Positions 9,325 to 12,300 of a stretch of 39,738 nt of DNA are shown here, in pieces; position 1 is the first letter of the stretch, and each line of letters starts with the position of its first letter. The position numbers are program-made. The stretch is from a virus (Duplodnaviria > Heunggongvirae > Uroviricota > Caudoviricetes). The stretch lies in the IMG/VR virus record IMGVR_UViG_2778261509_000011, positions 1 through 39,738 of that record; one strand, written 5' to 3'.

Positions 9325-12300
9325 TAAGACATTCCCGCTCTTACACATCCCAGCCCTGAAAAAGGGCATCAAATTAAACCACACCTATGGTGTATGCATT
9401 TATTTGCATACATTCAATCAATTGTTATCTAAGGAAATACTTACATATGGTTCGTGCAAACAAACGCAACGAGGCTCTACGAATCGAGAGTGCGTTGCTT
9501 AACAAAATCGCAATGCTTGGAACTGAGAAGACAGCGGAAGCTGTGGGAGTTGATAAGTCGCAGATCAGCAGGTGGAAGAGGGACTGGATTCCAAAGTTCT
9601 CAATGCTGCTTGCTGTTCTTGAATGGGGCGTCGTTGACGACGACATGGCTCGATTGGCACGACAAGTTGCTTCGATTCTCACCAATAAAAAACGCCCGGC
9701 GGCAACCGAGCGTTCTGAACAAATCCAAATGGAATTTTAATAACATCCAACGAGGTAATTATATGCGAAACAAAGGCTTTAATCCACCTGATACACACAA
9801 AGAAGCTAAGCGTTTGCGCTTCCTTCGTTCCATTGATGAAAGAACTCAAATCTCTTTTGTGAAAGTTGCCAGAACTGAGCTTCTGAAGGCTGAGGCGAGG
9901 GCGTTGCTCCCGTCCCTACCAAAAGAGGAGGGATATACGTTCATTCCAAACGCATTTCTGGAAAAGCTGCTCAAAGAAGACATATCCGTAAGTCAGTTTA
10001 ACGATGTTCTTAAGGTCTTTCGTCAAGGCAGGTAGTTATGAGCAATACAGCAAAAATCTACGATTTCAGCGCCGCACACGAGCGCAGGAGCAACAGGATG
10101 GAGAACCAGAAAACTGGTTACATTCCGTTGTACCGGAGCATTCTGAAACAGTCATGGGCGAAAGATGTTTATCTTCGCACCCTGTGGGAAAACCTTCTCC
10201 TGAATGCCGCCAGAAAGCCATACAAAGCGAATTTCAAAGGTCATGAATGGCATCTGCAACCCGGTCAACTGGTTGTGACAGCAGCTGATTTAGGTCTTCA
10301 GTTATGCGACAGGCATGGCAAGCCGGCAAGCCGTGATCAGGTTGAGCGGATGCTTCAGGTTTTTGTGAAAGAGGGGATGATCTCCATTGATGGAGAGAAG
10401 CAAAAAGGTCGTGTGATAACCATCACAAATTACCATGAATATGCTCAAAAAATGGACAATTTACCCGCACATGAAGCCGCACAAACAACCGCACATGATG
10501 CCGCACATGATGAAGCCAGTAATGGCGCGGCTTTCAGCGTACATGTCGCACATGAAAGCGCACATGAAGCCGCACAAACAACCGCACATCATGAACAAGA
10601 AGGTATTAACAAGAATATAAATAATACCCCCCTACCCCCCAATGGGGGAGGCGATGGGCAGGTTAAACCTGAACGTCGCAAGGCAGAACGAATCGACTAC
10701 GAATCCTTCCTGAACGCCTACAACACCGAAGTCGGTGACAGGCTGCCACACGCTGTTGCGGTCAACGAGAAACGCAAACGCCGCCTGAAGAAAATCATCC
10801 CGCAACTGAAAACGCCAAACGTGGACGGTTTCAGAGCGTATGTCAGGGCGTTTGTGCATCAGGCCAAGCCGTTTTACTTCGGAGACAACGACACGGGCTG
10901 GACAGCTGATTTTGATTACCTGCTGAGGGAAGATTCGTTAACGGGAGTACGGGAAGGGAAGTTTGCAGACAGGGGGATTGCATGAGACAGGATATCGAAG
11001 CGAGCGTTATCGGTGGCCTGCTGATTGGTGGATTAACACCAACCGCCAGCGACGTTCTGGCAACGCTGGAGCCGGAAGCGTTTTCAATTCCGCTCTACCG
11101 GAAAGCCTTCGAGGTTATCCGCAAGCAGGCGAGAAACAGAAACCTAATCGATGCGCTGATGGTTGCCGAGGCGTGCGGAGAGGAGCATTTCACGTCAATC
11201 CTGATGACCAGCAAAAACTGCCCGAGTGCCGCAAACCTGAAGGGATATGCCGGAATGGTCGCGGATAACTATCACCGCCGTCTGGTGCTGGAAATCATGG
11301 ATGAAATGCGTGAACCAATTCAGAGCGGAACCATCGACGCATCGAGTCAGGCGATGGATGAGCTTGTAAAGCGTCTTTCAGCCATCAGAAAGCCCCGTGA
11401 CGAGGTTAAACCTGTACGGTTAGGGGAAATCATTACTGACTACACTGACACGCTTGACAGGCGTCTGAGGAACGGAGAAGAGTCCGATACCCTGAAGACC
11501 GGAATCGAAGAACTTGATGCCATCACCGGAGGGATGAACGCGGAAGACCTGGTGATAATCGCTGCTCGTCCTGGTATGGGGAAAACCGAACTGGCGCTGA
11601 AGATTGCCGAAGGCGTTGCAAGACGCGTTATCCCTGGTTCTGACGTTCGGCGCGGAGTGTTGATTTTCTCGATGGAAATGAGCGCATTGCAGATTGCAGA
11701 GCGAAGCATCGCCAACGCCGGGAGGATGTCGGTTAGCGTACTGCGAAATCCTGCATCGATGGATGACGAAGGCTGGGCGCGTGTTGCTAACGGCATGAGT
11801 CAGCTTGCAGATTTGGATGTATGGGTAGTCGATGCCTCGCGGTTATCGGTCGAAGAAATACGCTCAATCGCAGAACGGCACAAACAGGAACATCCAAACC
11901 TGTCACTCATCATGGCGGATTATCTTGGCCTGATTGAGAAGCCGAAAGCAGATCGCAACGATCTCGCAATTGCCCACATCTCCGGAAGCCTGAAGGCGAT
12001 GGCGAAAGACCTGAAAACACCGGTTATCTCCCTGAGTCAGCTTTCGCGCGATGTTGAAAAGCGACCAAACAAACGCCCGACAAACGCAGATTTGCGTGAT
12101 TCAGGAAGCATTGAACAGGACGCAGACTCAATCATCATGCTCTATCGGGAGGCGGTATATGACGAGAACAGTAGCGCCGCGCCATTTGCTGAAATCATCG
12201 TGACGAAAAACCGTTTTGGCTCGCTTGGTACGGTTTACCAGCGGTTCTGCAACGGACACTTTGTTGCATGTGACCAGGATGAAGCCAGACAGATTTGCAC

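Follow-up and report, generated by a model that had tools for sequence, protein, structure and literature searches.

The 39,738-nt stretch of DNA analyzed here (the window, positions 1 to 39,738 of the IMG/VR virus record IMGVR_UViG_2778261509_000011) is a P22-like Escherichia coli prophage with phage 434 immunity, and its lambdoid immunity and replication region extends from 8376 to 12358. Our subject is the cII gene in this region together with two leftward-reading elements, the CII-dependent promoter pRE, which lies across the 5' end of cII, and a predicted OOP-like antisense RNA, which has its terminator (tO) inside the 3' end of cII and its promoter (pO) on the start of the next gene. The cII gene (9447-9740, plus strand) encodes the 97-residue activator of pRE and of a second promoter, paQ; the protein matches Pfam Phage_CII over its full length (E = 1.7e-48), is exactly the CII of phage 434, and shares 96 of its 97 residues with lambda CII. 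It is followed on the same strand by an open reading frame (ORF) of 90 codons (9763-10035), with the Shine-Dalgarno sequence GAGG at 9752-9755, that belongs to a conserved phage family of unknown function (phrog_2519, E = 1.9e-57) and stands between oop and an O-like replication gene.

At the 5' end of cII, within its first codons, the minus strand carries an exact match to the CII-binding direct repeats TTGC-N6-TTGC (TTGCGTTTGTTTGC, 9456-9469). The repeats straddle a poor -35 element, and the pRE -10 hexamer, read from the sequence as AAGTAT and the same as in lambda, follows 13 nt downstream of the second TTGC (9437-9442), on the strand antisense to the 5' end of cII. The predicted start of transcription is at 9430, the seventh nucleotide after the -10 hexamer, and was placed by carrying the lambda start, which we take to be 38343, through the identical block with an offset of 28913. 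As a bare motif the repeat is not significant, with four matches in the window where 3.4 are expected, and the site at 9456-9469 is meaningful because it stands in a full pRE context: the 198 bp from 9350 to 9547, with every element of the promoter from the repeats through the -35 and the -10 to the start, match lambda at 100% identity. Identity of the cII/pRE segment to phage 434 is 98.9%, at the homologous positions the record of 434 has annotations for the pRE -35, for the CII site, and for an oop noncoding RNA, and the HK633 record annotates pRE, the CII site, and "lambda oop." With the cognate CII activator encoded in cis, the segment 9350-9547 almost certainly carries a pRE of the lambda type, at which binding and activation by CII are predicted from the lambda identity. 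Both cro (9112-9327, plus strand, HTH_3) and the gene for the LexA-like, 434-type repressor cI (8376-9008, minus strand, Peptidase_S24 and HTH domains) lie to the left of pRE, and a leftward transcript would be antisense to cro and run into cI. The sole difference from lambda pRE is this context, in that the repressor gene in its path is a 434-type cI in place of the lambda one, which is also the case in phage 434. The preliminary description of this DNA had already placed a pRE-like CII-binding motif inside the 5' end of cII, and the full lambda-identical context confirms it; the left edge of 9430 that it gave for the feature coincides with the lambda pRE start mapped onto the window, although cII itself starts at 9447.

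At the opposite end of cII lies the intrinsic terminator tO (9687-9716, minus strand), which consists of a stem at 9693-9712, extendable to 9689-9716, and a run of six T residues at 9687-9692. Its core reads CGCTCGG (9712-9706), a loop of 6 nt, CCGGGCG (9699-9693), and then T6 (9692-9687), and a terminator scan reported it as a minus-strand hairpin from 9716 to 9689 with 12 pairs (6 of them G-C), a 4-nt loop, and a T-rich tail. This is the strongest of the sites found by the scan, which alone does not rise above chance (four terminator-like sites in 1.4 kb versus 1.5 +/- 1.3 in shuffled sequences). It is also base-for-base the lambda tO, with the 44 nt from 9684 to 9727 being 100% identical to lambda tO/oop, and an exact 38-mer spanning it is present in more than 120 viral contigs. 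The fold of a 68-nt RNA has a free energy of -20 kcal/mol (z = -2.6), with the terminator hairpin strongly predicted. As the preliminary description had proposed, then, a strong minus-strand terminator sits inside the 3' end of cII. The counts given above for TTGC-N6-TTGC and for terminator-like sites are what a chance resemblance of the hairpin, the TTGC repeats, and the TATAAT of pO would lead one to expect, but the base-for-base identity to characterized lambda elements extends over hundreds of bases and the elements are kept in hundreds of phage contigs, and on these grounds we reject chance as practically excluded. The terminator and the CII site are meaningful because they are identical to characterized elements of lambda and 434, and not by virtue of motif counts.

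The predicted pO has as its -10 hexamer a perfect and comparatively conserved consensus TATAAT (9758-9763, minus strand), a sequence that occurs only eight times in the window on both strands together, and base 9763 belongs both to this hexamer and to the start codon (ATG) of the 90-amino acid ORF. The invariant last T of the hexamer (A9758 on the plus strand) falls outside all coding sequence. A candidate -35, TGGATT, lies inside this ORF at 9781-9786, with a 17-nt spacer and a weak match of three bases in six. In a simple two-hexamer sigma-70 matrix, which was built from sigma-70 base frequencies and gives approximate scores, pO reaches 9.1 bits and ranks 8 among 79,420 positions, compared with 8.7 bits for the proven pO of lambda, and TATAAT by itself contributes 8.3 bits. 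The same matrix ranks among its top positions the pR annotated in 434 (9079), a site upstream of isrK (14061), and a site just after Q (17308), the place of pR' in lambda. The arrangement at pO is that of lambda, where the -10 hexamer is CATAAT, its CAT is complementary to the start codon of O, and the start of OOP RNA adjoins the Shine-Dalgarno sequence of O. Lambda pO is inactivated by one base change in this hexamer at a distance of 2 bp from the start codon of O (PMC3985674), and replacement of ATTAT with GCGCG abolishes oop expression (PMC3349717). Here the predicted start is G9751, seven bases after the hexamer, which adjoins the GAGG of the ORF and does not lie over it. The expectation that the 90-amino acid ORF stands where the OOP promoter would be is therefore correct, and this is the usual arrangement: the -10 overlaps the ATG of the ORF, the promoter is not displaced, and the RNA would start beside the Shine-Dalgarno sequence. 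No LexA/SOS-box-like sequence is found near 9750-9800; in lambda, pO is under LexA control.

From this start to tO the predicted OOP-like RNA would run from 9751 to about 9686 on the minus strand, a length of about 66 nt, of which the 3' 44 nt are those of lambda oop and the 5' end is placed from the position of the -10 and by analogy with the G at which lambda OOP starts beside the Shine-Dalgarno sequence of O. It would be complementary to the last 55 nt of cII (9686-9740), the same overlap as in lambda, and to 11 nt of the intergenic spacer. A length of about 77 nt, that of lambda OOP, had been anticipated for this RNA; it is predicted to be shorter because the spacer past the cII stop codon is 10 nt shorter than in lambda. 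Departure from lambda begins at 9728 and continues rightward, with the last four differences within cII leaving the CII C-terminus unaltered and the spacer having a sequence unlike that of lambda. The minus-strand sequence is CGCATATAAT-TACCTC-GTTGGATGTTATTAAAATTCC... in the window and TGTCATAAT-GACTCCT-GTTGATAGATCCAG... in lambda, and the promoter hexamers differ as well (CATAAT and TTGAGT in lambda versus TATAAT and TGGATT here). For the 33-bp pO/5'-oop block ACTGGATCaATCcACAGGAGTaATTATGaCAAA, around which Hayes et al. (2012) collected lambdoid loci that conserve it (PMC3349717), the best alignment to the window is gapped, with 25 identical bases in 36 columns, which falls short of a match of at least 90%. 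Judged from its sequence, the cassette in the window is a diverged second type of pO-oop-tO cassette and is no copy of lambda oop. The claim that an OOP-like RNA is conserved at cII is thereby borne out for the terminator and the cII-overlapping part, which are identical to lambda, and fails for the 5' third, which is not lambda-like.

The same intergenic type, CATATAATTACCTCGTTGGATGTT followed by the terminator, is found in CUS-3, Gally, Kapi1, phi24B, and Stx2a phages, with identities over the cassette of ~92-93% for phi24B and the Stx2a phages and 97-99% for CUS-3 and Gally. In phi24B and many of the Stx2a phages the body of cII is different and the terminator has the loop variant TCTTGCACA, and in phi24B another small ORF lies downstream. 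More widely, two sets of 124 related loci each were compared; the exact terminator search gave more than 120 viral contigs, and a search with the window-type 5' core gave more than 120 further matches. Among the loci compared, no fewer than five intergenic types of distinct sequence, with six sub-variants, can be told apart, these being lambda/434/21 (with an HK633/P22 sub-variant), window/phi24B, epsilon34/Oslo, and two singletons. The genes downstream are unrelated to one another (lambda O, an HK97 gp53-like ORF, at least two other ORFs in loci of the lambda type, the 90-amino acid ORF, and the phi24B-type small ORF), and every combination of type and gene keeps [C/T]ATAAT over the downstream start codon. 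This hexamer sits 62-80 nt before the terminator T-run, except in the P22-type locus, where the script did not find the T-run. Homology breaks a few bases upstream of the -10 and again just past the terminator, with the consequence that the -35 is not conserved and that the unit from -10 to terminator behaves as an exchangeable cassette of ~85 bp. In the Salmonella phage S.Inf 5-2 (locus L223, 480-660) a promoter side of the window type, CGCATATAATTACCTC, is joined to an RNA body of the epsilon34 type, with the junction at the predicted start site. Two loci, L029 and L069, have two further intergenic types, and in these, too, CATAAT on the downstream ATG is kept.

Several observations weigh against the reading that an OOP RNA is made from this cassette. 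The -35 is poor, at three matches in six, and is not conserved between the downstream-gene contexts, and a stock promoter scan, which demands at least four matches in six for each hexamer, did not call pO because of it. The 5' 22 nt of the predicted RNA differ from lambda, and under the same fold conditions the 5' stem of lambda OOP, of 10 bp (10-11 bp), is reduced to a 4-bp helix. Rfam contains no OOP family with which the cassette could be scored, and none came up in searches with the whole window at the gathering threshold and with 9350-9900 at a permissive one; a search of the literature found no paper in which an OOP RNA of this intergenic type is mapped. The permissive matches to His_leader, MicC, and STnc310 are below threshold, driven by the terminator, and were set aside as chance. 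Conservation at the locus may also have more than one cause, since the ATTAT(A)TG block is part of the translation start region of the downstream gene and the C-terminal tail of CII is a degradation signal for FtsH. Alleles of CII that are only 17-25% identical to this one over the rest of the protein are 83-100% identical in their last 18 residues, which counts in favor of the cassette, but the conservation of the 3' end of cII could in part reflect this tail.

Some of these points would suit a passive passenger, in which terminator and ATTAT(A)TG are kept by other constraints, such as coding for the degradation tail of CII, the ribosome-binding region of the 90-amino acid ORF, or a role as homologous linker in the recombination of lambdoid modules, and in which no meaningful OOP RNA is made since the -35 is weak. 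The location of the block exactly at mosaic junctions fits such a view, as does the loss of the lambda 5' part and stem-loop. It is difficult to reconcile, however, with the score of pO, which through its TATAAT exceeds in total that of the proven promoter of lambda, or with the retention of [C/T]ATAAT by five sequence-distinct intergenic types with differing Shine-Dalgarno sequences and spacers. Coding constraint also leaves unexplained why a complete G+C-rich hairpin with T6 should stand on the noncoding strand, an arrangement that P22 c1, whose antisense RNA has been detected (PMC13397905), repeats in an altogether different sequence. We therefore consider it improbable that the cassette is a passenger kept by these constraints.

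Phage P22 provides a close comparator for the layout as a whole, with the gene order of a cII-like gene, oop, a small orf, an O-like gene, and a helicase gene, and with the -10 of its pO (CATAAT) on the ATG of the small orf, orf48 (PMC3349717, PMC3985674). Its oop RNA is antisense to c1 and was detected at 63 nt, near the size predicted here (PMC13397905). P22 differs in that an unrelated terminator stands at the same place and the C-terminus of C1 is unrelated, though the body of C1 is similar, and in that the small orf, of 48 amino acids, is of another family than the 90-amino acid ORF. The small orf between oop and gene 18 of P22 is one that lambda has been described as "naturally missing" (PMC3349717). 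OOP RNA has been detected in prophage BTP1 as well (PMC7067206), and reviews mention Stx phages with OOP-like sequences in their cII-O regions (PMC5488031, PMC12197685). Compared with lambda, the predicted RNA shares the antisense overlap with cII, the terminator with its adjoining sequence, and the placing of the -10 on the next rightward start codon with the start site beside that gene's Shine-Dalgarno sequence; it differs in length, in its unrelated 5' end, in having the 90-amino acid ORF rather than O downstream, and in lacking an SOS-box-like sequence near its promoter.

A different question is whether the act of transcription from pO matters more than its product. In this case pO would serve mainly in convergent interference with transcription from pR into the 90-amino acid ORF and the O-like and DnaB-like genes, with an antisense effect on cII being secondary. 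The -10 lies directly on the start of the first gene of the replication module, and in lambda a mutation in the pO -10 raises read-through from pR and impairs replication independently of the level of oop RNA (PMC3985674), while OOP contributes little or nothing to the removal of CII once the SOS response has been induced (PMC2327240). Interference is nonetheless compatible with an antisense role and does not exclude it, and pure interference would need neither the full 55-nt overlap with cII nor the terminator, both of which are conserved. We regard a promoter that acts chiefly by interference as rather unlikely, if a good deal less so than a passenger.

The reading that we prefer is that of an OOP-type countertranscript. 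It is supported by the identity to lambda and 434, the terminator, the high-scoring and comparatively conserved -10, the comparison of related loci, the conserved last residues of CII, the effects of -10 mutants in lambda, and the RNAs of P22 and BTP1, and we judge it very likely that a functional OOP-type transcript is encoded here, with its production, its exact 5' end, and its effects through RNase III and through interference all predicted. With equal confidence, the segment as a whole can be taken as the standard lambdoid unit for the control of lysis and lysogeny, built around cII. In such a unit, rightward transcription from pR would yield cII mRNA, and CII bound to the repeats at 9456-9469 would activate pRE, giving the leftward transcript that is antisense to cro and enters the 434-type cI, and would likewise activate the lambda-identical paQ inside Q. 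Constitutive leftward transcription from pO, with its -10 on the start codon of the 90-amino acid ORF, would produce the ~66-nt RNA from G9751 to tO (~9686), and pairing of this RNA with the last 55 nt of cII mRNA would lead to cutting by RNase III, as in lambda, and thus to less CII and conditions favoring lytic growth. Convergent pO may in addition damp read-through from pR into the replication genes (PMC3985674).

The other CII-type sites of the window are of unequal standing. The paQ-type, CII-dependent antisense promoter in Q (16887-16919, minus strand) was recognized by its motif and consists of TTGCGAGCACTTGC, 13 nt, and TAGTAT. The Q gene (16619-17242, Pfam Antiterm) is 97.4% identical to lambda Q, with zero differences across 16787-16950, and the TTGC-N6-TTGC at 16906 (minus strand) is, as predicted from this identity, a genuine paQ. 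The absence of differences from lambda over this stretch indicates that the CII regulon includes paQ beside pRE. The match at 37960-37973 (plus strand), by comparison, falls in the gap that separates the final large phage ORF from a host gene; no suitably spaced -10 accompanies it, and it is probably due to chance; the fourth match in the window is at 31456 (minus strand).

In many P22-like and Stx2a phages the 90-amino acid ORF comes first in the replication module, and it is annotated as hypothetical in Gally, JEP4, HF4s, and Kapi1. Its product has zero matches in Pfam, NCBIfam, and the PDB. The Kapi1 record notes a Phage_rep_O motif, which would suggest a duplicated N-terminus of O, and this origin was rejected given the lack of similarity to the O-like protein and of any match in the three databases. 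Inside the ORF, just upstream of the -35 region of pO, lies a weak terminator-like hairpin, AAGCG-CAAA-CGCTT with a T-rich tail (9808-9821, minus strand), which is possibly a chance feature and accompanies the ORF in related phages. The 5' end of the O-like gene that follows (MSNTAKI..., 10035-10070) is homologous to the start of lambda O, which holds the spacer and -35 of lambda pO. The equivalent of the hexamer there is CATAAC, in which the invariant last T is lost, and the equivalent of the -35 is degenerate; this looks like a decayed homologue of pO left behind the inserted 90-amino acid ORF, or it may simply be a conserved N-terminus. The O-like initiator gene itself (10038-10985, plus strand) has a Phage_rep_O match, and the next ORF (10982-12358, plus strand) is assigned as a putative DnaB-like helicase gene from its position, which is that of the annotated DnaB-like helicase in Kapi1.

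The surroundings are mosaic. Phages 434 and HK633 are 98.9-99.3% identical to the window over 9300-9736, while the P22-like coliphages Gally, CUS-3, JEP4, and HF4s are 97.5-99.1% identical over 9430-10100, and the part from 9678 to 10100 is also common to Kapi1 and dozens of Stx2a phages. Of 5,426 complete E. coli genomes, 11 carry the complete configuration in a prophage, at ~99% identity, with strains WCHEC4533 and G749 as examples. The late genes are P22-like (for example P22_gp7), and on the right the window ends in host DNA, with a gene of the D-Ala-D-Ala carboxypeptidase/PBP5 type at 38566-39738 and the passage beyond the prophage end falling within 37825-39738. In the nin region, Rfam matches to isrK (14073-14149, plus strand, 70.7 bits) and to C4 antisense RNA (14175-14258, 66.7 bits) are followed directly by an antirepressor-like gene with ORF6N and P22_AR_C domains (14311-14991, plus strand), and a strong promoter is predicted at ~14061, upstream of isrK. 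The set from 14073 to 14991 looks like an antirepressor module of the Gifsy-1/P1 type controlled by small RNAs.

The order cII, oop, orf, and O has already been described for P22 and other lambdoid phages, and the feature is known biology in an ordinary prophage, which carries what is apparently an intact and complete CII circuit of the lambda type, with pRE, paQ, and the predicted OOP-type countertranscript. The second-type cassette is widespread among Stx2a phages and P22-like coliphages. It combines a consensus -10 fused to the start of the 90-amino acid ORF with a ~66-nt RNA that has no lambda 5' stem-loop and with no SOS-box-like sequence. That it represents a functionally distinct variant of OOP is a tentative suggestion, which we consider possible but doubtful; if it were so, its stability, its regulation, and its coupling to the ORF and the replication genes could differ from lambda. 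The main value of the analysis is in correct annotation, since the records compared for CUS-3, Gally, Kapi1, phi24B, and many Stx2a phages omit an OOP-like RNA. For comparative work, it may be mildly useful to regard the unit from the -10 to the terminator as a separately exchanged cassette of ~85 bp.

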